The notes under the pieces were generated by a model that ran no database searches, was not told the origin of the DNA, and saw only the letters and a list, made by a program, of their open reading frames with translations. From the NCBI GenBank assembly GCA_009886115.1, contig VFJJ01000064.1:1-50785 (forward strand): DNA of 50,785 bases, read 5' to 3'. Below, piece after piece: positions 1-11,447 of this stretch (positions within the stretch are counted from its first letter, which is position 1; each line of letters starts with the position of its first letter). This stretch comes from Actinomycetota bacterium (GTDB lineage: Bacteria; Actinomycetota; Acidimicrobiia; IMCC26256; VFJJ01). A program made the translations under genes and the position numbers.

Positions 1-1594
1 CGACCTGCACGCCGTCGGCTCGCAGCACCGTGACCCGTAATGTCCCGTCGGCCTTCGCTGACACGGCCGCCAGCGGCACCACCAGGACCGGCCCGTCGGT
101 CGACGCCGCGGCGATCGTGACCCGCAGGTTGGTTCCTAAGAGGCCGTCGGGGATCTCGGTGGCCGGGTCGAGCACCACCTCGTGTTCGAGCCCGCCAGCC
201 GGGCCGGCGACGGGCTGGCCGGCGATCTCGGCCACGACCGCGTCGAACCGGTCGCCGGTCACCTCGACATCGAGCACCGCTACGGCACCTTCTTGTACCA
301 ACGGTCGATCGCCAGCCGAGACCCCGCCCCGGACCTCCAACGACCCGATACTCAAACCCAACAGCGCACCACCCGCGGGGCTCGACGCGCCCCCACCACC
401 CGCTCCGAGAGCACCCGCTTCCGAACCCGTCGGGCCCGCCCCAGCGCCACCACCGACCGACGCCCCGATCACAGCGTTCGACGACGACACCCGCGCCGGC
501 AGCTCCGGCACGAACACCACCTCACCCCGCGGGACGGTCACCCCGGCCGAGACACTCACCAAGAAGTACGACCGTTGCGCCGCCGTCAGCGCAGCCTCCG
601 CATCGACCACACCACGCCGCAACGCGTCCACATCCGGCGGTTCCAACGCCGTCTCGTACGCCAGCTCCGCCAGCCGCACGCCGTCCTCGGCATCAGCCGC
701 CAGGCCAGCCTGCTCACCACCGACCCGGGCCCGATCGACCTCCGCCACAGCCAACGCCTGACGGGCCGCGGAAACCTGCTCCGCTGTCGCCACCGGGTCA
801 GCCACCAGTCGATCGACCTCACGACGAGCTGCGCTCACGGACCCATCCGCCGCCTGGATCGCCCGGGCCGACGTGTCGCGAGCACTGTTCAGGCCCCGCT
901 GGGACTGACCCAACGCCACCTCGGCCTGCGCCACCGCGCCCGGATCGACCTGGCGGCCATCGGCCAGCGCCTCCTGCGCACCGGCCAACGACCGTTCCGC
1001 CGCGTCCACCCCCGCCAACGCCTCCGCCAACTTCACCGTGTCGTCAAGCGAGGACGGCACCGGCTCGAACCCGGCCTCCCGATACCAGGCCGCCACCGCA
1101 GCCTGCGTCCCCGCCCCGAACACGCCGTCTTCGTCGTCGCCGACATCGAACCCCAGACGGGTCAGGCCGTCCTGGAGCTGGGTCACGTCCAGACCGCGGC
1201 TGGCCGGCCCCAACGACCGGTACACCGGCACCAGACCTTCCAGCACCAACACCGGCCGATCCGACACCACCACCAACACGCCACCCTCGACGACTGGATC
1301 GCCCACCCCGACCCGCACATCGGTCACCACCGGCACCGTCTCACCCGACAACAGCGGCGCACCCACATCCACTGCACCCGCCGCGACCACATCACCACGA
1401 AACACGACCACGTCGGTCAGCACGCGGCGCTCCACCAACGCTGTGATCACCGACGGCACCGGAGGCGCCGCATCGGCGGCCGCTTGGTCCGGCGACCTGA
1501 CCCGCTGCCCCGCCTCATACGCCCCGACCGGCACCCCAACCAAGATGAGCGCCGCTATCAACCAGCCGATCCGACTGCGCCAGTTCTTCTTCAC
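1..1594 (-). CDS. Peptidoglycan-binding-domain / membrane-fusion (adaptor) protein typical of actinobacterial ABC export operons; 3' end truncated by window edge
   Basis: Manual translation (absent from ORF track because it runs off the edge). GTG at 1594 gives MKKNWRSRIGWLIAALILVGVPVG (TM), RSPDQAAADAAPPVPSVITALVERRVL, a PG-binding-like segment YRSLGPASRGLDVTQLQDGLTRLGF..DGVFGAGTQAAVAAWY, an Ala/Gln coiled coil, and GPVLVVPLAAVSAKADG near the edge. Confidence 0.8.
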   Translation of the reverse strand, partial: MKKNWRSRIGWLIAALILVGVPVGAYEAGQRVRSPDQAAADAAPPVPSVITALVERRVLTDVVVFRGDVVAAGAVDVGAPLLSGETVPVVTDVRVGVGDPVVEGGVLVVVSDRPVLVLEGLVPVYRSLGPASRGLDVTQLQDGLTRLGFDVGDDEDGVFGAGTQAAVAAWYREAGFEPVPSSLDDTVKLAEALAGVDAAERSLAGAQEALADGRQVDPGAVAQAEVALGQSQRGLNSARDTSARAIQAADGSVSAARREVDRLVADPVATAEQVSAARQALAVAEVDRARVGGEQAGLAADAEDGVRLAELAYETALEPPDVDALRRGVVDAEAALTAAQRSYFLVSVSAGVTVPRGEVVFVPELPARVSSSNAVIGASVGGGAGAGPTGSEAGALGAGGGGASSPAGGALLGLSIGSLEVRGGVSAGDRPLVQEGAVAVLDVEVTGDRFDAVVAEIAGQPVAGPAGGLEHEVVLDPATEIPDGLLGTNLRVTIAAASTDGPVLVVPLAAVSAKADGTLRVTVLRADGVQV

Positions 1595-1999
1595 TGTGCC
1601 CTCGGCTCCGTCCGATGTCTCCGAAAAATCTGTTGCCGCCAGATGACGATGAGCGCTCGCCAAGCGCTTGCGTCACCGCTCTCTGAACGCGCGGTATCAG
1701 GGGTTTCCCGGGGGCTGCGAAACTCAACGTGGCGCGCGTTTGCCCATGGATGCCGAGACCGGATGACGCCGGAATAGTAATTGTACCATGTAACCAAGTG
1801 GGCTCGTAGCAAAAGAAAGATCTGTCGTCATCCTACAAGTTATATGATTGAAGTGGCATGAATGAGTGCGTGTACCACGGTTGACCGCCTTGAACTCCTG
1901 TGTCTCGAACTTTAACAATCAGCGTCAAGCTGAATGTTGGGCGTTTCGGTCTAAAGCGATGCCGGCAAGGCTGCTGGAATCAGATTCTGGTGTGGCCGA

Positions 2000-2536
2000 C
2001 TATGAGATGTAGATGCTGCTGATCCGGTTGTCCCAGCCGCCGAGCATGGTGGGCGATTGGATGTTGGCGTTGGTGTTGCCGGGGTAGACGGATCCGCTGC
2101 CGTTGGCGCCGTCGTAGAAGATGCTGCTGCACGGCCCGACCTTGTAGCTGCTGGTCACATTGTCGAACCCGTAGGGCGACAGGTTCGTGTAGACCTGCTG
2201 GGTGGACAGTTGGAGGAGGCTACCCGTATAACTGGTGCCGGAGTAGAGCCTCAGAGTGCCAGAACAGGTCGCCTGGATCACCACGCCGCTACTGACCCTC
2301 GACGCCTGCGTGTTGGCGTCCATCTCCGCTTCGGTCCGGTAACACGTCGTGGTCGTCCCGTTGCTCGTACAGGCCTTGGCGTCACCCCAACCGCCCCGGA
2401 GATCGATCGTGGCCCCTTCGAAACTCGCCAGCGACGGGTTGGGTTTGGGGGCCGCGCCCGCGCTCCCGACGAACGGGACCGCTACCAGGCCCAACATCAC
2501 GGTTGCGAGGATCGTGATTCGAGTCGTGCGCTTCAT
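2000..2536 (-). CDS. Secreted protein with beta/gamma-crystallin-like (peptidase inhibitor I36/SKLP-like) domain
   Basis: AGGAG RBS before ATG 2536 (alternative ATG 2551 overlaps the upstream stop). Sec signal MKRTTRITILATVMLGLVAVPFVGSAGA. Two Greek-key-type motifs: LRLYSGTSYTG..FDNVTSSYKV and IFYDGANGSG..WDNRISSIYI. Confidence 0.75.
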   Translation of the reverse strand: MKRTTRITILATVMLGLVAVPFVGSAGAAPKPNPSLASFEGATIDLRGGWGDAKACTSNGTTTTCYRTEAEMDANTQASRVSSGVVIQATCSGTLRLYSGTSYTGSLLQLSTQQVYTNLSPYGFDNVTSSYKVGPCSSIFYDGANGSGSVYPGNTNANIQSPTMLGGWDNRISSIYIS

Positions 2537-2547
2537 TGGTTCTCCTG

Positions 2548-3312
2548 TCATGGTTGGGGACCGACGCCGATGAACACCGAACGCTGCGACGAGTCAACAC
2601 CGACAAGAGCGCAGATATCCGTCGGGTTGAGCTGCGGGTTCTCCTGCACCTGCCAGCCGTCGAGCTCAAGCTCTGCGATCAGCTCCCGAGCCAAGGCCAC
2701 AGCTTCTGACTGAGCGATACACGAGCTACCAGCAGCTTGGACGAGACGGTCCTGAAGCTCGATCACCGCTTGTGCTTCGGGTGAAAGCTCGAGCACGGCC
2801 GGGTCGAGCCCGAGGGTCTCGCAGACCTCGACCGAATCGCCAGGGAACACCTCGACCGCGCTCGACACACCGACGCACGCGACCAGCGGTGGTGGCGCCT
2901 CGACGTCGATCGTGTCGAAACGGCCCTCGACCCATACCGTCGCGCACCGTCCGATCGGGTCGGGACCCGGCTCGATGACGACGATCTCGCTGTCGAGACG
3001 TGCCTCAGCTCGACAGGCCACCCCGCTCTCGGGCCGGGACGATTCCCGACCCGCGACCAGCGCGACCGCCACACCCGCGGACGAGACGAGCAGCACACCG
3101 ACCCCGACCAGAATCACCCGTCGATGACGGGCCTTCCATGCCCGTCGACGCACCGAACGGCCGTCGGGATCGGTCGCGGTTATCCGGGCGATCAACTCGT
3201 CCAGGTCATAGGAACGCGGCGGAGGCCAATCCCCGCTGGCGAGCGGGTCGGCTCGACGGATCGCGTCGATGATGTCCCAGCCTTCAGGCCGGTCCGGTGA
3301 CTTGTGGCTCAT
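2548..3312 (-). CDS. Putative membrane anti-sigma factor (single TM, Cys-containing extracytoplasmic domain)
   Basis: ATG 3312 overlaps the sigma stop (ATGA). Cytoplasmic N-terminus, basic stretch, TM VILVGVGVLLVSSAGVAVALVA, then a domain with six Cys. Directly downstream of an ECF sigma. Confidence 0.65.
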   Translation of the reverse strand: MSHKSPDRPEGWDIIDAIRRADPLASGDWPPPRSYDLDELIARITATDPDGRSVRRRAWKARHRRVILVGVGVLLVSSAGVAVALVAGRESSRPESGVACRAEARLDSEIVVIEPGPDPIGRCATVWVEGRFDTIDVEAPPPLVACVGVSSAVEVFPGDSVEVCETLGLDPAVLELSPEAQAVIELQDRLVQAAGSSCIAQSEAVALARELIAELELDGWQVQENPQLNPTDICALVGVDSSQRSVFIGVGPQP

Positions 3313-3836
3313 CGCTCGGCCACCTCGCGGACACGCCGATACGCACGCGAAACTCGTTTGCGAGCCGCGACCGGGCTGCAACCGAGTATCACCGCCAGTT
3401 CCTCGGCCGAGAACCCGTCCCGCACCACCGCGAGCAATACCTGACGGTCACCCTCGTCCAGGCGGGCCAACGTCCGATCGACCAGCTCACGTTCGTCAAC
3501 CTCGTCAAACCCGTCCCGATCATGCATCGAGGCGGTATTCGCGTTCCGGTCGCGGATGAACCGGGCTTCGTGTGTCATGCGACGGCTCGTGGCTCGGAGC
3601 TGATTGCCATGCGTCTGGTACGCGACCCGACACAACCAGGCATGCCGGAACGACTCCGGCACCTCGTTGAGCACATGATCGAACCGGCGCCAAGCGACCA
3701 GCAGAACACCCTGAACAATGTCGTCGATCTCCGAGCCGTAGCACCTGCGCGCCACGAACCCGCGTAGACCTGGCTCGTGCTTCCTCACGAACCCGGTGTA
3801 CTGGCAGAAACGCTCGGCTGGATCGACAGAACTCAT
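3309..3836 (-). CDS. ECF RNA polymerase sigma factor (sigma-70 group 4)
   Basis: GAGGG RBS before ATG 3836; 175 aa. Region 2 EIDDIVQGVLLVAWRRF..HAWLCRVAY; region 4 LARLDEGDRQVLLAVVRDGFSAEELAVILGCSPVAARKRVSRAYRRV. Confidence 0.9.
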   Translation of the reverse strand: MSSVDPAERFCQYTGFVRKHEPGLRGFVARRCYGSEIDDIVQGVLLVAWRRFDHVLNEVPESFRHAWLCRVAYQTHGNQLRATSRRMTHEARFIRDRNANTASMHDRDGFDEVDERELVDRTLARLDEGDRQVLLAVVRDGFSAEELAVILGCSPVAARKRVSRAYRRVREVAER

Positions 3837-3854
3837 GTTTCCCTCAGCTGGAAT

Positions 3855-3880
3855 ATGTCCGGCTGAGCGGAAACTGTGAC
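3855..3880 (-). promoter_or_regulatory. Candidate ECF autoregulatory promoter P1 (GTCACAGTTT-N9-CGGACAT)
   Basis: Bipartite motif ending 18 nt before the sigma ATG; identical half-sites and spacing recur at 3989-4014. Confidence 0.55.
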
Positions 3881-3910
3881 ACCCCACCTCGAGAAACCAC
3901 CAGACGTGGA

Positions 3911-3951
3911 GGTGGCGTGGCCGCTGAGGGAAACGGTGCGGCCACGCCACC
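3911..3951 (-). promoter_or_regulatory. 14-bp perfect hairpin with anti-RBS loop (candidate sRNA or 5' UTR switch)
   Basis: GGTGGCGTGGCCGC (3911-3924) and GCGGCCACGCCACC (3938-3951) are exact reverse complements. On the minus strand 3923-3934 reads GTTTCCCTCAGC, complementary to the sigma RBS region GCTGAGGGAAAC (3837-3848). Confidence 0.5.
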
Positions 3952-3988
3952 AGAGAACCACCCATCAGGGCAGGACTCCACCCCATAC

Positions 3989-4014
3989 ATGTCCGACACA
4001 CGCCAAACTGTGAC
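3989..4014 (-). promoter_or_regulatory. Candidate ECF promoter P2 (GTCACAGTTT-N9-CGGACAT)
   Basis: Minus strand GTCACAGTTT GGCGTGTGT CGGACAT: same 17 fixed bases as P1 with a different spacer. Confidence 0.55.
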
Positions 4015-4149
4015 CGACCCGGGCCCGAACAACCGCTCAGCCTGAACCGCAGTGGGACCTCGGAGCCACAATCGGGCTCCCCCTTCAGGGCAACCACATG
4101 CCGGCAAGCGACGGTTCCTCGTCACAGACGGACCGACTCGAGCAGCCGC

Positions 4150-4620
4150 CGTCGACCTCGCGGCCGTCGACCAAGCGGCCGACGACAAGCCGTTCGCCAG
4201 CGTCGGCGCTGTACATCGGCGCGATCACGCTCACCGCGCTGGCGCCGGCCGACATCCGGGCGCGCGACGCCATGTCGCTGCACATGTCGAAGCGGTGGGG
4301 CGACGAACCGCTGGCGTCCCGCCACGGTGCGCACGACGCACCGGATGCTGCGCCGGACATTGCACGACTCGGTCCAGTGGGAAGTTCGCCGGCCGCAAAC
4401 CCGTGCCAGGCGGTGATCGAGCCGGGGCGGAACCAGGTGGAGATCCCGGGCTGGGACGCCGAGCAGACGCGGGCGTTCCTGGCACGTCGAACGTGGTCGG
4501 CTCGCTGCGACGGGGCCGCTGTTGGTGGCCACCGGCATGCGAAGGCCACCACACTGCGGCACCCCTCGCACTCGGTGGTGGTGCCGGGGGTTGCATCCGA
4601 ACGTGGTGCGCCTCTGCCAT
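4150..4620 (+). pseudogene. Degenerate tyrosine integrase remnant (frameshifted, internally deleted); boundaries approximate
   Basis: Integrase-like blocks in different frames but correct order: LYIGAITLTALAPADIRA (4209), ATVRTTHRMLRRTLHDSVQWE (4321), NPCQAVIEPGRNQVEIPGWDAEQTRAFL (4398), HHTAAPLAL (4547, cf. RHTAATLAL), RGLHPNVV (about 4585, cf. GVHPKVV). Confidence 0.7.
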
Positions 4621-4818
4621 TCCTCGATCGCGATCACGCTCGACGCGGAAAGCCACCTGCTCCCGTCGATGCAAAGGTGACCCCGCAGCAGACCTGGGAC
4701 AAGGCCGTAGACGGGAGTCGATCCATTGCACCAGGCCGTCGAGCGTGATCGTGTTGGGCGGCGAGCCGTACCGGCTGTGAGACCAAGGCCGCCTCGGCGA
4801 CGAGGAAGTCGCCGGCAG

Positions 4819-4840
4819 TTGCCAATCCGTTTGCCAATCC
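4819..4840. repeat. Direct repeat TTGCCAATCC x2, candidate integrase arm-type sites
   Basis: Exact 10-mers at 4819-4828 and 4831-4840, between the two convergent integrase genes. Confidence 0.5.
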
Positions 4841-4912
4841 ACTGGCCGGAGTCAAACGGACTGACGTGCACCGCGCGGATGATCGCACCTACGCTGAGCT
4901 GCGGAAACGTCA

Positions 4913-4932
4913 GTAATGTCATGTGACATTAC
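4913..4932. repeat. 20-bp palindrome GTAATGTCA-TG-TGACATTAC
   Basis: Perfect 9-bp AT-rich arms with a 2-bp spacer, 16 bp beyond the integrase stop. Function unknown. Confidence 0.6.
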
Positions 4933-4948
4933 GCCAGCGCTCACCCGC

Positions 4949-6148
4949 TCAAGGTGGAGGAGCGTCCTTCTGCGACAATCCGGGACTCATGAGGGCGGGT
5001 TTGCCGAGGAGGCGGTTCCAGGCTTCGATGGCGTGGGGGAGTGATGGGCGGACGGGGTGGCGGTAGCCCTGGGTGGTGCGGGTGTCGACGTGGCCGGCGA
5101 GGTCGGCGACCTTGACAAGGTCGTCGAGCTGGTCGGCGACGAGGGAGACGAATGAGTGTCGGAGCTCGTAGGTGGTCCAGTCGGTTCCGAGGCCGGACCT
5201 CTCGCAGAGCGCCTTGAACGCATCGCGAAGGTTCCCGAGCAGGTAGGGCGTTCCGTTGCGGGTGCAGAACACGAAGCCCTCGGTGCTGAAGTAGCCGATC
5301 ATCTGCATCTCGTCACGGTGACGATGGAGGGCCGCGACCAAGAGCGGGTGGAGGCCGATGGTGCGGCGTCCCCTTTCGGTCTTGGGTGCGGCCTGGCCGA
5401 CGTACCTGTGAGCAAGCTCCTGGGCGCGTTCGGCGACGGTGATCGAGGGTTCGGCCGAGTCGATGTCGACGAACGGCCATCGGAGGCCGGCGAGCTCGCC
5501 CGGTCGCAGTCCGCACATGAGGCCGGTGATCCACATCGCCGGAGTGGACGATGCCGGGATGCCCCGGGTGAGCAGGGCCTGGGCTTGCACAATGGTCAGC
5601 GACTTGCGTGGCTTCGCGGGACGGGCGACTGGTAGCAGCACCGTCGTGGCAGGGTTCGTCTTGATCACGCGTTGGCGGACGGCGTGCTGGCAGGCATGGT
5701 TCGTGTACAGCCAGACGCGATCGACCGTGCTCGTTGACAGGCCTGACGCGGCCATCTTCTGGAAGGGCTGCTCGAGGCGCGCCGTGGAGGTTCGGTCGAC
5801 CCGGAGGCCGCCGATCGTCGCACGGACATGAACGTCGAGGAGTGTCCGGGCGTTGGCGATCGTGCTCGGGGACTTCTCGCGGGCGTGACGTGTACGACTC
5901 GTCGACGAGACGCTCGGACAGCCGGCGTCGAGCCACCCGTCGATCACCTGCTCGAAGGTCGCGAGGCGTTCACGGCGGGGCTCAACTGTGGCGCCGGTGG
6001 CTCGCAGCGTAACGAGATCGTCGAGATCCTTCTGGGCGTCACGCTTGGAGACCCGCTCGACCTTGCGGCGCGAGCCGTCAGGGAACCGGACCCAGGCCAT
6101 CCACCGCTGCGCGCCCTCGTTCCACCGCACCGTCGGCCGTTGCGCCAT
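4949..6148 (-). CDS. int: Tyrosine recombinase / integrase (399 aa)
   Basis: ATG 6148 (MAQRPTVRW) after a purine-rich RBS. Catalytic motifs CGLRPGEL, PKTERGRRTI, YELRHSFVS, LAGHVDTRTTQGYRH; arm-binding-like N-terminus. The ORF-track extension through the tRNA is not real. Confidence 0.93.
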   Translation of the reverse strand: MAQRPTVRWNEGAQRWMAWVRFPDGSRRKVERVSKRDAQKDLDDLVTLRATGATVEPRRERLATFEQVIDGWLDAGCPSVSSTSRTRHAREKSPSTIANARTLLDVHVRATIGGLRVDRTSTARLEQPFQKMAASGLSTSTVDRVWLYTNHACQHAVRQRVIKTNPATTVLLPVARPAKPRKSLTIVQAQALLTRGIPASSTPAMWITGLMCGLRPGELAGLRWPFVDIDSAEPSITVAERAQELAHRYVGQAAPKTERGRRTIGLHPLLVAALHRHRDEMQMIGYFSTEGFVFCTRNGTPYLLGNLRDAFKALCERSGLGTDWTTYELRHSFVSLVADQLDDLVKVADLAGHVDTRTTQGYRHPVRPSLPHAIEAWNRLLGKPALMSPGLSQKDAPPP

Positions 6149-6245
6149 GCCAGGCCCCCTTCTGAGCTGGGTCGACAGAGCGCCGACGGAGCCAGCGGGC
6201 GAAAGGCTACGTCCAAACCGGCTACGTCGCGGGTCGGGACGCGGG

Positions 6246-6280
6246 AAACCCCAGGCCAGATGAGCTCTGGCCTGGGGTTT
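6246..6280. terminator. Perfect 15-bp hairpin directly 3' of the tRNA (probable intrinsic terminator)
   Basis: AAACCCCAGGCCAGA-TGAGC-TCTGGCCTGGGGTTT. Confidence 0.75.
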
Positions 6281-6285
6281 TGGTG

Positions 6286-6358
6286 TGGAGCTGAGGAGCT
6301 TCGAACTCCCTACCTCTTGCATGCCATGCAAGCGCTCTACCCACTGAGCTACAGCCCC
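6286..6358 (-). tRNA. tRNA-Ala(GGC)
   Basis: GGGGCTG TA GCTC AGTGGGTA GAGC G CTTGC AT GGC AT GCAAG AGGTA GGGAG TTCGAAG CTCCT CAGCTCC A. Cloverleaf with G3.U70 Ala identity pair; CCA not encoded in register. Confidence 0.95.
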
Positions 6359-6499
6359 ATGCGCGGGCAGGACTCTAGCAAACCGCTGCACCAGATCGAG
6401 ATCGACCTCGGAGCCCCAGGCATCGGGATTCGGCGGGGTCGCCCTGACGGCGGCTCAATCGAACGCTGGGGCTCGAGGGGCGGCCGGTAGATTGGTCAC

Positions 6500-9400
6500 A
6501 TGGTCAACGAGCAGGTCGACGAGCCCGCAATCGTCCCGCCGGTGCCGGGAGCCGACGTCGACGACGGGGTCCCTCCGCACCGGTACACCGCGGCGTTGGC
6601 CAACGAGATCGAGCTGCGTTGGCAGGACCACTGGGACGACGAGCGGACGTTCTGGTCGCCGAACCCGACCGGGCCGCTGAGCGAGCCCAACGGCGGTCGA
6701 GCCCGGCTCCAGAAGCTGTACGTGCTCGACATGTTTCCGTACCCGTCGGGCATCGGGCTGCACGTCGGCCATCCGCTCGGGTACATCGCCACCGACATCT
6801 GGGCCCGCTTCAAGCGCATGCGCGGCTTCAACGTCTTGCACGCCATGGGCTACGACGCGTTCGGGCTGCCGGCCGAGCAGTTCGCCGTCCAGACCGGAAC
6901 CCACCCCCGCATCACCACCGAGAGCAACATCGCGTCGATGAAGGCGCAGCTGCGCCGCCTCGGGCTGGGCCACGATCAGCGCCGCGGCATCTCGACGACC
7001 GATGTCGGCTACTACCGCTGGACCCAGTGGATCTTCCTGCAGATCTTCAACGCGTGGTGCGATCCCGAGAGCGGACGGGCCCGGCCCATCGCCGAGCTCG
7101 AGGCCCAGCTGGCCGACGCGACGCGCCCGACAAGCAGCGGCCGGGCCTGGAGCGCGCTGTCGCCGCTGGAGCGTCGGATCGAGCTCGACGCGCACCGGCT
7201 GGTGTACCGCTCCGAGATGCCCGTCAACTGGTGCCCGGGGCTGGGCACCGTGCTGGCGAACGAGGAGGTCACCGCCGAGGGCCGCAGCGACCGCGGGAAC
7301 TTCCCCGTGTACCAGCGCCTGCTCAAGCAGTGGGTGATGCGGATCACGTCGTTCGCCGACCGCCTGCTCGGCGACCTCGACGAGCTCGACTGGCCCGAGC
7401 CCATCAAGCTCATGCAGCGCAACTGGATCGGGAGGAGCGAGGGCGCCGAGATCGTCTTCCCGGTCGCCGCCCGCGGCGCCGCCGAAGCGTCTGGCGCGGA
7501 TGCCGGTGCCGCCGGGACCGGGACCGGGACCGGGACCGGGTCCGTCGATGGCGCTCCCCGTGCGATCGCGGTCTTCACGACCCGCCCCGACACGATCTTC
7601 GGCGCCACCTACATGGTGTTGGCGCCGGAGCACCCGTTGGTCGACGAGATCACCGCCGACGCCTGGCCCCCGGGGACGCTCTCGGTCCAACGGGGCGGCG
7701 GGTTCGCCGGCTCGCCGGTCGACGGGCATCGCACACCGCGCGATGCCGTGGCCGCGTACCGCGCCTACACCCTCGGGCGCAGCGAGATCGACCGCCAAGC
7801 CGAGTCGAAGCTCAAGACCGGGGTCTTCGTGGGCGCCTTCGCCACGAACCCGGCCACCGGGGGCCCCATCCCCGTGTTCATCGCCGACTACGTGCTGATG
7901 GGCTACGGGACGGGCGCCATCATGGCCGTGCCTGGCCAAGACGAGCGCGACTGGGAGTTCGCCGAGGTGTTCGGGCTGCCGATCGTGCGCTCCGTCGAGC
8001 CTCCGACGGGCTGGGACGGCGCCGCGTTCACGGGCGACGGCCCGGCGGTCAACTCCGGGTTCCTCGACGGGCTGCGGGTCGACGCCGCCAAGGCGCGCGT
8101 CCTCCACTGGCTGGAAGCAGAGGGAGTGGGATCGCGGCGGGTCACCTACAAGCTGCGTGACTGGCTGTTCAGCCGTCAGCGCTACTGGGGAGAGCCGTTC
8201 CCGATCATCTACGACGAGACCGCACTGCCGATCGGGGTCCCGACCTCGATGCTGCCGGTCGAGTTGCCTGCGATCGACGACTTCATGCCCAAGACGTCCG
8301 ACGATCCCGACGCGCTGCCCGAGCCGCCGCTGGCCCGGGCGACCGCGTGGACGACCGTCGAGCTCGACCTCGGTGAGGGCGACGGGGTGCGCACCTACCG
8401 GCGAGAGCTCAACACCATGCCGCAGTGGGCCGGATCGTGTTGGTACTACCTGCGCTACCTCGACCCCGACAACGCCGACGATCTGGTCGATCCGGCCAAC
8501 GAGGCCTACTGGATGGTCGGGGCGACGGGGTCCCAGCCCGACGGCTCATCGAACATCGGCGGTGTCGACCTCTACGTGGGCGGGGTCGAGCACGCCGTGT
8601 TGCACCTGTTGTATGCCCGTTTCTGGCACAAGATCCTGTTCGATCTCGGGCACGTATCCACGCCGGAGCCGTTCCAGCGACTGTTCAACCAGGGCTACAT
8701 CCAGGCCGCGGCGTTCACCGACGGACGGGGTTCCTACGTCGACGCCGAGAAGGTCGTCGACCAGCAGGGCCAGTTCCTGTACGACGGCGAGCCGGTGAAC
8801 CGCGAGTTCGGCAAGATGGGCAAGTCGTTGAAGAACGCCGTCGCCCCCGACCAGATCTGTCGCGACTACGGCGCCGACACGCTGCGGCTCTACGAGATGT
8901 ACATGGGTCGTCTCGAGCAGTCGAAGCCCTGGAACACACGCGACATCGTCGGGGTGCACCGGTTCCTGCAGCGGGTGTGGCGCCTGTTCGTGGACGAGCA
9001 GACGGGCGAGCTCAACGTGGGAGCGTCTGGAGCGAAGGCCGTCGACGCAGCCACGATGCGCTTGCTGCACAAGACGATCGCTGCGGTCACCGACGATCTC
9101 GAAGACCTGCGATTCAACACGGCCATCGCCAAGCTCATCGAGCTGACGAACCACCTCACGCCGATCGTGAGCACAGTCGGACAGTTACCCGCCGAGGTGG
9201 CCGAGGCGTTGGTGTTGATGCTGGCCCCGATGGCCCCGCATTTCTGCGAGGAGCTCTGGGCGCGCCTCGGGCGCTCCGAGCCCTTGGCCTTCCACGCGTT
9301 CCCCGTGGCCGATCCCGTGCTGCTGGTGGAGGACCTGCTCGAGATGCCGGTTCAGGTCAATGGGAAGGTGAGGGGCCAGATCACCGTGGCTGCCTCCCAG

Positions 9401-9529
9401 GCGGGCCACGAAGCCACGTTGCTCGCCGCTGCGCACGCCAACGACCGGGTCGCGGTTCATCTCGAAGGGCTGGTGGTGCGCAAGGTGATCGTCGTGCCCG
9501 GGCGCCTGCTGAACATCGTGGGGGGCTGA
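6500..9529 (+). CDS. leuS: Leucine--tRNA ligase
   Basis: [19 protein letters not shown] (HIGH), [22 protein letters not shown] (KMSKS), editing domain [14 protein letters not shown]. Confidence 0.98.
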
Positions 9530-9531
9530 CG

Positions 9532-9951
9532 ATGGCGACCGGCGGCGGGCCCCCGGCGAGTGGTGCTCGGCCCCGCGTCTTCAGCGCCCGCCGTCTGGTG
9601 GCCCCCGAGCTCAGGTCGTACGACCTCGTCCCGCTCGCCGACCGGGCTCGGGCCCGGGTGATCGTCGTGCCGTGGCTACCGGGCGCGCACGGGATGACCC
9701 TGGGGCGCTACGTGTTCCTCACGCGTGGCCATGCCCATCGCACGACCCTGCTGGCCCACGAGCTGGTGCACGTCCGCCAGTACCGAGAGCTCGGATACCT
9801 CCGCTTCTCGTACCGGTATCTCCGCGACTACGCGAGGCTGCTCGTCGAGCACAGGGGCCGCCACAAGGCGGCGTACCGGGCCATCCCCTTCGAGGCCGAG
9901 GCCTACCGTGTCGCCGGCGAGTGGGCCAGGCAACCCCGCGATCAGGCGTAG
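9532..9951 (+). CDS. Small HExxH metallopeptidase-like protein (DUF4157-like), 139 aa
   Basis: ATG 2 nt after the leuS stop; GMTLGRYVF..LLAHELVHVRQY..AYRAIPFEAEAY. Confidence 0.75.
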   Translation: MATGGGPPASGARPRVFSARRLVAPELRSYDLVPLADRARARVIVVPWLPGAHGMTLGRYVFLTRGHAHRTTLLAHELVHVRQYRELGYLRFSYRYLRDYARLLVEHRGRHKAAYRAIPFEAEAYRVAGEWARQPRDQA

Positions 9952-9962
9952 CGTCGGACCTC

Positions 9963-11447
9963 GTGGACGACGGGCGCGCGGGTTGGTGGCAGGCATCCGA
10001 CGGCAAGTGGTACCCGCCCGACACCCATCCCGATCCGGCCCACCGGGCCCGATGGGCGCCCGCCCCGCCGAGCACGCCGCAGTTCGGGACCTCCCTCGGT
10101 CCACCGTCTGGCTGGCCGGGGTCGCCATCGGCGTCGTCACCCCCGACGGACCCGCCCGGGCCGTGGCCCGATCAGCCGAGCCCGTGGTCGGCCCCCGGGC
10201 CAGCGGCGCCCACGGACGGCTCGTCCTGGCCGATCCGTGGGCCGATCCCGAAGCAGCGCACGGGTCTGGTGGCCGGGATCGTGGTCGCGGTGATCCTGGT
10301 CGGGGTGGGTATACCCATCGGGGCGATCATCCTGGCCCGTGACGGTGACGACAACGGCGCGTCGCCTGCAACCTCGTCGGTCTCCGAGGTCGGCGATGAC
10401 GATTCCTCGCCGCCACGTCGAACGACCGCCACAGACGACGATCCGTCCGACACGGCGAGCGACACGCAAGACAACGGCGACGACACCGGAGACAACGGCG
10501 ACGACACCGGAGACACCGGCGACGCCGGGGGTGACGGCCTCGGCAGCCGTGAACGCCCGGCGGCCCTCGGGACGGTCTTCGACCTCGGCGACGGTTGGTT
10601 CGCCACCATCGCGTCGGTGCGCGACGCCGCGGCCGAGGGTCTGTTGGGTGAGTTCTCGAGCGAACCACCGGCCGGCACGCTCTTCCTTGCCGTTTCGGCT
10701 GAGGTCACCTACGCCGGAGAGGAGCTCGTGGCATCACCCGCGATCTTCGTGGAGGCCCTCGGCTCACAGGTCTTCGAGACGTCGTTCGACTGTCTGCTCG
10801 ATGTCGATCTGGTCCCGACCACGTACAGCTTCCGTCCCGGGCAGACCGCGCCGATCACCGTCTGCCTCGAGGTTCCCGTCGACGAACGTGCGACCGTGAT
10901 CTTCACGCTCGAGAACGTGTTCGACTTCGAAGGCGAGCCGAGAGTGTTCGGCGAGACCGCCACCGAGACCGCCGACCCTCCTTCGATCCCACCGTCGGGT
11001 CCGCCCACCGGGGGGCCTCCCGGTTCGGGCGGCAACCCGGCGGCGTTGGGCACGGTCTTCGATCTCTCTGCGGGATGGTCGGCTTCGGTGATCCGGGTCG
11101 AGGACGCCGTCGCTGGTGGCCTCGTCGACGATTTCTTCGGCGGGCCCGAGCCCGGCAACGTGTTCCTCGCGGTGATCGTCGAGGCCACATATGCGGGCGA
11201 CGAGCTCACGGCATCACCGGGGATCTTCGTCCAGGCCTTGGGTTCCGAGGTGTTCGACAATGCCTTTTCGTGCTTCCTCGACAGCTCGGTGATCGAGTCC
11301 ACCTCCGAATTCGTGCCCGGGCAGACCGCGCCCGTCACGTTCTGCTTCGAGGTTCCCGAGGCTGAGCGCTCCTCGCTCATCTACGCGGTCGGCGACTACA
11401 ACGACTTCGACATCGAACCCGTGGTCTTCAGCGAGAGCGGCGCGTAG
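9963..11447 (+). CDS. Single-pass membrane protein: N-terminal GWWQASDGKWYPP motif (DUF2510-like), Pro-rich linker, acidic stalk, two tandem beta-rich domains
   Basis: GTG 9963; TM GLVAGIVVAVILVGVGIPIGAIIL; duplicated domain PAALGTVFDL..W..YAG.EL.ASP.IFV.ALGS.VF..SC.LD..PGQTAP.T.C.EVP. Confidence 0.75.
   Translation: MDDGRAGWWQASDGKWYPPDTHPDPAHRARWAPAPPSTPQFGTSLGPPSGWPGSPSASSPPTDPPGPWPDQPSPWSAPGPAAPTDGSSWPIRGPIPKQRTGLVAGIVVAVILVGVGIPIGAIILARDGDDNGASPATSSVSEVGDDDSSPPRRTTATDDDPSDTASDTQDNGDDTGDNGDDTGDTGDAGGDGLGSRERPAALGTVFDLGDGWFATIASVRDAAAEGLLGEFSSEPPAGTLFLAVSAEVTYAGEELVASPAIFVEALGSQVFETSFDCLLDVDLVPTTYSFRPGQTAPITVCLEVPVDERATVIFTLENVFDFEGEPRVFGETATETADPPSIPPSGPPTGGPPGSGGNPAALGTVFDLSAGWSASVIRVEDAVAGGLVDDFFGGPEPGNVFLAVIVEATYAGDELTASPGIFVQALGSEVFDNAFSCFLDSSVIESTSEFVPGQTAPVTFCFEVPEAERSSLIYAVGDYNDFDIEPVVFSESGA

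Follow-up and report, generated by a model that had tools for sequence, protein, structure and literature searches.

A hairpin loop complementary to the ribosome-binding site of an ECF sigma factor gene: a triplicated promoter-like unit and possible fold-back control of translation

Introduction

Upstream of an ECF-type sigma factor gene, a perfect hairpin presents in its loop the exact complement of that gene's own ribosome-binding site (RBS). Is this match a coincidence, a relic of local duplication, a set of binding sites on the DNA, or part of a device that controls translation of the sigma factor, and if the last, does the loop act on the RBS in trans or does the leader fold back on itself? 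The locus lies in a window that comprises one whole contig of 50,785 bases, from a draft genome of 5,446,417 bases with 69.5% GC. Its features are collected in Table 1.

Table 1. Features of the sigma locus, with positions in the window
Feature	Position	Strand	Description
ECF-type sigma factor gene	3309..3836	-	175 aa, near-orphan; ATG at 3836-3834, stop at 3309
Downstream gene	2548..3312	-	254 aa, one hydrophobic segment; overlaps the sigma stop (ATGA)
Copy c (RBS)	3837..3848	-	12 nt before the sigma ATG, GCTGAGGGAAAC; holds the GAGGG Shine-Dalgarno (SD) core
Copy b	3862..3874	-	GTTTCCGCTCAGC; nearly complements the RBS; lies between the P1 boxes
Proximal imperfect palindrome	3834..3876	-	15 bp, one bulge and one mismatch
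Copy a	3934-3923	-	GTTTCCCTCAGC; exact reverse complement of the RBS 12-mer
Hairpin A	3911..3951	-	perfect 14-bp stem, 13-nt loop ACCGTTTCCCTCA; carries copy a
Copy d	4033..4045	-	GGCTGAGCGG; complement of copy b (inverted repeat I3, 92% over 13 nt)
P1	3855..3881	-	promoter-like TGTCACA-N13-CGGACAT; direct repeat D1; putative
P2	3989..4015	-	GGTCACA-N13-CGGACAT, 134 nt upstream of P1; putative
Three degenerate tandem units	3848..4045	-	C 4045-3985, A 3972-3912, B 3906-3848

The sigma gene and its genomic setting

The sigma protein matches the Pfam families Sigma70_r2 (PF04542, E 9.7e-5) and Sigma70_r4_2 (PF08281, E 8.4e-11) and scores 59.8 bits with the NCBIfam model sigma70-ECF (TIGR02937), for which the cutoff is 42.9. 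It has regions 2 and 4 only and a small size (175 aa), as in ECF (group 4) sigma factors. The nearest relatives start within a few residues of the ATG at 3836, in support of that start codon. The product of the overlapping downstream gene belongs to no Pfam family, its only match being a weak one to SCO2400_fam (E 0.0055, below the cutoff); by gene position only, it is a putative membrane anti-sigma factor. Farther downstream are genes for a weakly I36-like secreted protein and a peptidoglycan-binding adaptor-like protein. Upstream of sigma lie a tyrosine-integrase gene (4949 to about 6100) and then a tRNA-Ala gene (6285-6358). At least 45 nt at 6275-6320, made up of the 3' part of this tRNA-Ala and 10 nt beyond it, recur at C175:1148-1192, where they mark either another tRNA-Ala gene or the integrase island's far attachment site.

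An exhaustive protein search placed the best relatives of the sigma factor at 45% and 42% identity, and a word-indexed search returned only the query itself and one protein at 34%. Scans for sigma loci with a 3-sequence alignment found seven in genome contigs and 37 in metagenome contigs, all of them at most 33% identical. Among the genomes of relatives, a match was seen in 1 of 61 and in 1 of 264 (order), both being the window's own genome; a plasmid collection gave one protein match at 31% and no DNA match. The DNA contigs that cover 3735-3978 do not differ from the window, and there are no natural variants among them. A look for RNA runs that contain the stretch returned none.

Parts of the setting recur elsewhere in the genome. 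Positions 1-1582 of the window are 92% identical in DNA to C102:14180-12602, with adaptor proteins that match in 496 of 549 residues, and positions 4820-4998 are 78% identical to C102:11677-11502, with a similar stretch on C36. The adaptor/ABC-transporter module and a stretch of 130-180 nt by the integrase stop are found on C102:11502-14180 and C36:21020-21892. Between these anchors lie a 3.2-kb cassette of lower GC in the window, 0.9 kb with an ECF sigma gene on C102 and about 0.44 kb on C36, so that from its sequence the anchored region looks like a cassette-exchange site beside integrases. GC is 61-66% in the sigma gene and the DNA upstream of it, 54-55% at 1600-2200 and 69.5% in the genome as a whole. 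The low-GC stretch at 1600-2200 lies between the I36-like and adaptor genes, and homology to C102 breaks exactly there, at 1582.

The ECF sigma factor encoded on C102 is 34% identical to that of the window (51 of 151 residues). Its locus has TGTCACA upstream, a longest RBS complement of 5 nt and an SD accessibility of 0.50. Conserved complementarity at homologous loci, to which the first-pass annotation of this DNA had looked, is thus absent from the one paralogous locus; this counts mildly against a conserved mechanism and is weak evidence at that distance.

The interval 4085-4949 contains no clean gene: the best GC3 frame shifts four times, and a 155-aa open reading frame (ORF) within it has no Pfam match and no homologue. 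The segment 4079-4275 has GC3 above 0.9, yet its ORF is without a homologue. This segment is nearly unchanged in contigs from other studies (n=3), with one variant lacking 15 nt at 4168, unlike the sigma region beside it, which is present only in the probable source sample. A "tRNA-Thr" called by ARAGORN at 4121-4208 was set aside, as it forms a poor cloverleaf, is re-called as a tRNA-Glu with an intron and is absent from the Rfam results. Nearer the sigma gene, a minus-strand open frame at 3844-4188 ends at a TGA (3846-3844) within the sigma SD, 7 nt before the ATG, and an ATG at 3986-3984 on the same strand is in frame with sigma; with leaderless P2 transcripts, a start there would lengthen the protein by 50 residues. 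Codon periodicity is absent from that frame and from the stretch that follows the ATG at 3986. Translational coupling through the 3844-4188 frame, or an extended sigma isoform from the ATG at 3986, would be speculative readings.

The RBS and its complementary copies

The first-pass annotation had reported an exact complement of the RBS 12-mer, mostly displayed in a loop, a perfect 14-bp stem around it, and a near copy within P1 able to pair with the RBS with one bulge. All three observations hold. The arms of hairpin A (3951-3938 and 3924-3911) are complementary at 14/14 positions, copy a has 10 nt in the loop and 2 nt in the stem, and copy b pairs with the RBS leaving one bulged G. A further suggestion, that the adaptor gene RBS is a second target, was rejected as regards a specific target: that site shares only the generic GAGGG core with the sigma RBS.

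The proximal palindrome has copy b, in the P1 spacer, as its 5' arm, the second box of P1 at its apex and the SD in its 3' arm. The arms formed by copies b and c extend to 16/17 positions, and the CATAT at their apex belongs to the second P1 box; the similarity of the arms was reached by 0/2000 shuffles. Copy d, weak alone, is a possible competitor arm; it is unused in the minimum free energy (MFE) structures. On the plus strand, at 3923-4016, the same SD 12-mer can be read in the loop of hairpin A; one base later comes a GTG, the start of an open frame about 26 codons long, probably a side effect of the inverted copy.

The match between loop and RBS is not chance, and it is statistically exceptional for its genome. 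The RBS 12-mer is found at two places only in the 5,446,417 bases, the RBS and the loop. An exact 12-nt complement at most 150 nt upstream occurs at 701 of 2,164,242 sampled positions. Among 3573 SD-bearing starts, which were chosen heuristically and leave out sigma itself through a GC3 filter (its GC3 is low), a complement of at least 12 nt within 200 nt was found at one start, of at least 11 nt at two and of at least 10 nt at 14. When the 129 perfect hairpins with a stem of at least 12 and a loop of at least 8 are ranked by the complement between loop and flank, hairpin A comes 1st with a score of 12; the commonest value is 6, and only three score 9 or more. A 12-nt complement to the loop also lies at the RBS of an unrelated gene on C183, which from a reading of its translation, not a family search, we take to be DJ-1/PfpI-like; such matches to SD-like contexts therefore do occur elsewhere.

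The sigma gene also stands apart from its kind within the genome. Nineteen ECF-like genes were found with a profile built from the relatives of sigma, their starts being chosen heuristically; among them sigma alone has an upstream anti-RBS longer than 7 nt, and it has the lowest SD accessibility too. In a -60..+20 context this accessibility is 0.10, the 1.1 percentile of 1500 sampled gene starts. Similar SD occlusion is reached by about 1% of genes, which counts against a model of masking in cis.

The genome has 138 perfect hairpins with a stem of at least 14 and a loop of 3-20. Hairpin A does not belong to a dispersed repeat, as nhmmer and blastn-short find no further copy of it in the genome. 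The same genome holds many perfect palindromes with 20-bp stems, 3-nt loops, 45-55% GC and similar TTGGG/TTCG flanks (for example C6:11778-11820, C23:42186-42228, C39:15417-15459 and C52:58047-58089), which may form a REP-like dispersed repeat family.

A triplicated upstream unit

Copies a and b are not independent: both lie in a direct repeat of about 45 nt with a period of about 61 nt. Three degenerate tandem units make up the region, and a genome-wide nhmmer search with a profile of all three returned no copy besides them. The alignment of units A and B spans 49 columns, with 37 matches, 5 mismatches and 7 gap columns, and has a score of 42 that was reached by 0/1000 and 0/2000 shuffles. 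Units C and B score 35 (0/2000 shuffles), and C against A is not significant alone (263/2000). Upstream of the 12-mer, A and B are still similar (score reached by 16/2000 shuffles); copies a and b are therefore paralogous and not two coincidences.

Units C and B carry the blocks (G/T)GTCACAGTTT and CGGACAT at identical spacing, TGTCACA and CGGACAT being 13 nt apart. Neither box survives in unit A, where the sequences read GCACCG and CGGCCAC, and the spacer that this unit has kept is the loop of hairpin A. Judged from these alignments, the loop-RBS match most likely stems from a triplicated promoter unit, the loop mirroring the RBS because unit A kept the promoter spacer as its loop.

Common origin does not account for every feature of the two copies. 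All 12 pairing positions are identical between copies a and b, the single difference being the bulged G, and 25/36 columns are identical in the rest of the aligned A/B unit. The chance of 12 unchanged positions is 0.69^12, or about 0.012, before correcting for the choice of segment. The conserved pairing positions in copy a hint at a constraint on the loop copy too, and a perfect 14/14 stem is unexpected beside such divergence between A and B.

The promoter-like motifs

We infer that P1 and P2 are promoters, with start sites near 3848 and 3982. Their spacers differ while the boxes are conserved, which is the pattern expected of functional boxes. A motif search of the genome gives only three occurrences of the full motif: the pair at the sigma locus, under a narrow pattern, and one at C102:16263, where it adjoins the paralogous transporter module and was recognised by eye under a broader pattern. 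About 240 nt downstream of this last motif (C102:16263-16290, plus strand), which comes just after a transporter permease, is a low-GC gene whose small product is secreted and contains cysteine. From its sequence context, the secreted-protein gene is a candidate regulon member for this sigma family.

A scan of the region for sigma-70-type promoters gave no match, and GGAAAC in the copies was rejected as an ECF -35 box on either strand, there being no plausible -10 at 16-17 nt. To our knowledge, no ECF -10 with the sequence of the second box, CGGACAT, is known, which counts against a model of masking in cis.

The first box has a closer precedent. TGTCACA is the experimentally defined -35 of ECF41 promoters, with the signature TGTCACA-n16-CGTC (PMC3426412). 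P1 has this exact heptamer and P2 has GGTCACA. Unlike in ECF41, the sequence 16 nt downstream reads ACAT here and not CGTC, and the 175-aa sigma factor is without the C-terminal extension that defines ECF41 (PMC3426412). The likeness thus extends to the -35 but not to the -10 or the protein.

Predicted RNA structures and transcript ends

RNAs were modelled from starts at 3982, 4030 and 4060 (P2-long and read-through) and at 3848-3852 (P1). Hairpin A alone has a predicted energy of -31.5 kcal/mol and the hairpin of copy b with the SD (b:c) alone -22.5 kcal/mol; both are present in the MFE structure of every longer transcript modelled. The GAGGG core of the SD has an unpaired probability of 0.001-0.006 in the P2-long and read-through models, and loop copy a one of 0.96 in the long-transcript models. 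The first-pass annotation had proposed that a long leader hides the RBS. The masking itself is borne out by the models, where the SD is paired (unpaired 0.001), but the masking arm is the proximal copy b, not the loop.

An RNA starting near 3848 would, by the same models, lack both anti-RBS copies, as had been claimed for the P1 transcript. In the P1 RNA (start 3848-3852), copy b is gone and the SD is partly paired with codons 8-12, so this RNA may not be freely translatable. Its modelled SD accessibility is 0.18 for the 12-mer and 0.40 for the core, with an opening cost of 8.7 kcal/mol.

Pairing of the loop in trans was estimated from duplex energy plus opening costs, a sum that takes no account of the strain on a 13-nt loop holding a helix of 10-12 bp. 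The net value is about -6 kcal/mol when the partner is an mRNA of P1 length, and about 0 for the long leader. By this estimate, loop-RBS pairing in trans would be feasible but modest.

No T-run follows hairpin A on either strand, and a terminator pattern scan of 3000-5200 found 0 sites. The 8 nt after the stem hold two T on the minus strand (TCCACGTC) and no T on the plus strand (AGAGAACC), so that hairpin A is not the GC-rich stem with U-tract that marks an intrinsic (Rho-independent) terminator. Such U-less hairpins are common here, with at most two T in the next 8 nt after 77 of the 138 long perfect hairpins. Hairpin A was also considered as the terminator of an upstream gene, which is unlikely without a U-tract and with no clean gene in 4085-4949. 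The short anti-RBS RNA envisaged in the first-pass annotation is doubtful, given the absence of a U-tract on either strand and a modelled trans pairing of only about -6 kcal/mol. An Rfam scan of window positions 1-10000 at E <= 1 returned the tRNA-Ala and a chance mir-383 match only, and no small RNA (sRNA) family.

Discussion

The reading toward which we tentatively lean is promoter-selective translation, that is, fold-back inhibition by the b:c hairpin in cis. The region before sigma would be a tandem triplication of a promoter unit, of which the outer copies keep both boxes (P2 and P1). RNA that begins farther upstream, at P2 or, through read-through, on the integrase side, would fold the b:c hairpin and bury the RBS. 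RNA from P1, with a predicted +1 near 3848, would start inside the hairpin without its 5' arm and would be translatable. The middle unit would have lost both boxes and become a perfect 14-bp hairpin with the spacer as its loop; within the long leader, hairpin A would probably be a barrier or a stabilising structure, and at most a spare anti-SD. The evidence that points this way is an inverted repeat whose 3' arm covers the SD (15 bp, -22.5 kcal/mol). The promoter-like P1 boxes bracket its 5' arm, so that P1, if a promoter, may fire from inside the repeat. The cis model leaves unexplained the perfect 14-bp stem of unit A and the 12/12 unchanged pairing positions of copies a and b.

A known class, promoter-dependent masking of the RBS, is where the mechanism most likely falls. 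For Bacillus subtilis sigG, a large hairpin is proposed to block translation of the read-through transcript and cannot form from PsigG (PMC5942855). The translation signals of IS10 are likewise described as sequestered in secondary structure (PMC13181058, citing Davis, Simons and Kleckner 1985). The sigma locus resembles IS10/Tn10 transposase and sigG in that an upstream segment, here by prediction, pairs with the RBS (PMC13181058, PMC5942855), and it would resemble them further in that its own promoter lies inside the inverted repeat and only outside transcripts can form the hairpin. In sigG, too, the gene encodes a sigma factor, one transcribed by itself (PMC5942855). Unlike those systems, the present locus has an ECF sigma gene with a second copy of the promoter motif upstream, so that outside transcripts may be purposeful, and a third, dead copy that shows the same anti-SD in a loop.

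Could the loop instead act in trans? A sigma-dependent RNA from P2 would then show its anti-RBS loop to the RBS of the P1 transcript, either as a short RNA that ends after hairpin A or as the 5'-extended leader itself. This is an unlikely reading overall, although several features argue for it. In the models the loop is 0.96 unpaired, and copy a complements the RBS at all 12 nt, without the bulge of the cis copy; hairpin A ranks 1st of 129 for loop-to-flank complement; and the pairing positions are kept at 12/12 between copies a and b against 25/36 columns elsewhere in the unit. The loop also contains CUCA, which fits YUNR, a pattern of antisense-RNA loops. Against it stand the missing U-tract on either strand, the net pairing with P1 mRNA of about -6 kcal/mol with loop strain ignored, the lack of any Rfam match to C4, 6C or another sRNA family at E <= 1, the equally long complement to the loop at the RBS of the C183 gene, and the fact that duplication already accounts for the loop copy; the reading also presumes that P2 is recognised by this sigma factor. 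A variant in which sigma-driven P2 makes a silent 5'-extended isoform with an anti-SD loop, and lowers sigma through run-through at P1 together with pairing to P1 transcripts, would combine both routes on the modelled structures and is quite unlikely. Yeast has "long undecoded transcript isoforms", of which this silent isoform, if true, would be a bacterial analogue.

RNAs that act through a loop upon an RBS have natural precedents. The gene for c4 RNA lies upstream of its target and has the same orientation. The loops of the c4 antisense RNA of P1/P7 complement the region around an RBS (PMC12197685, citing Citron and Schuster 1990), and the 6C/B11 RNAs are C-rich-loop sRNAs of high-GC Gram-positives (PMC6486639); such natural loop-to-RBS antisense RNAs lend the trans reading some weight. 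Like c4 (Rfam C4, RF01695), hairpin A exposes a loop whose sequence complements an RBS farther down its own strand. The present case differs from c4 in having no RF01695 match, one loop and not two, and a host island in place of phage immunity, and no processing signals are known for hairpin A. Its stable GC-rich hairpin, its pyrimidine-rich loop able to pair with G-rich SDs and its high-GC, actinobacterium-like genome recall 6C. Unlike 6C, with its two C-rich-loop hairpins, it has no Rfam 6C match, a single hairpin with only a CCC run and one locus that is not conserved.

An engineered equivalent works: in the synthetic ECF32-sRNA quasi-integral feedback controller, an ECF32-driven sRNA silences its own co-transcript (PMC6303309). 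The likeness to the trans reading is that an ECF sigma factor drives an RNA that silences its own mRNA; the controller is engineered, based on Hfq and RNase E in E. coli, and has its target site upstream of the RBS (PMC6303309). No natural counterpart of it was found in the literature covered, which left most subscription journals outside its scope, and the same coverage gave no natural ECF sigma factor with an RBS-sequestering leader or an sRNA against its own mRNA.

The whole arrangement may instead be a functionless relic, a by-product of tandem duplication whose RBS complementarity was inherited from the proximal palindrome. One unit would have decayed, and a template-switch mutation would have copied its left arm into its right to give the perfect stem. 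We regard this as somewhat unlikely. It fits with a repeat structure so local that all three nhmmer matches fall at this locus, with the decay of both boxes in unit A, and with a strain-specific cassette of GC below that of the genome (61-66% and 54-55% against 69.5%) that no relative carries and that sits between anchors common to two paralogous modules. It fits poorly with a 14/14 stem and a 12/12 complement, which are not expected to persist neutrally beside flanks diverged by about 30%, and with a palindrome that, centred exactly on a promoter box and covering the SD, looks designed. The copies may also be DNA operators, three of 12-13 nt (two direct, one inverted) and a partial fourth, bound by a P1 regulator over the second P1 box and the start site. 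Four copies containing GCTGAG do lie within about 210 nt, and the inverted b/c pair brackets the second P1 box and the predicted start. Yet no scanned cassette protein except sigma matches a DNA-binding family, the motif is nowhere else in the genome, the arms of 16-17 nt with centres about 25 bp apart would seem unlike typical dimer operators, and for copy a in a hairpin loop a cruciform or RNA logic fits better, so that operators are very unlikely.

Control of ECF sigma factors is usually described in terms of anti-sigma factors and positive autoregulation. If, as fold-back inhibition supposes, promoter choice decides translatability, a post-transcriptional brake would be added to the ECF loop, and a second promoter that feeds the silent form would strengthen that brake. 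Should the reading with a silent isoform be true instead, the locus would hold a natural RNA-level negative feedback, a counterpart of the synthetic ECF-sRNA controller. The arrangement is compact, at about 200 nt, and is a single in-silico case from an orphan locus in an uncultured organism. The locus would further illustrate how new RNA regulators can arise from the spare copies of a tandemly duplicated promoter.
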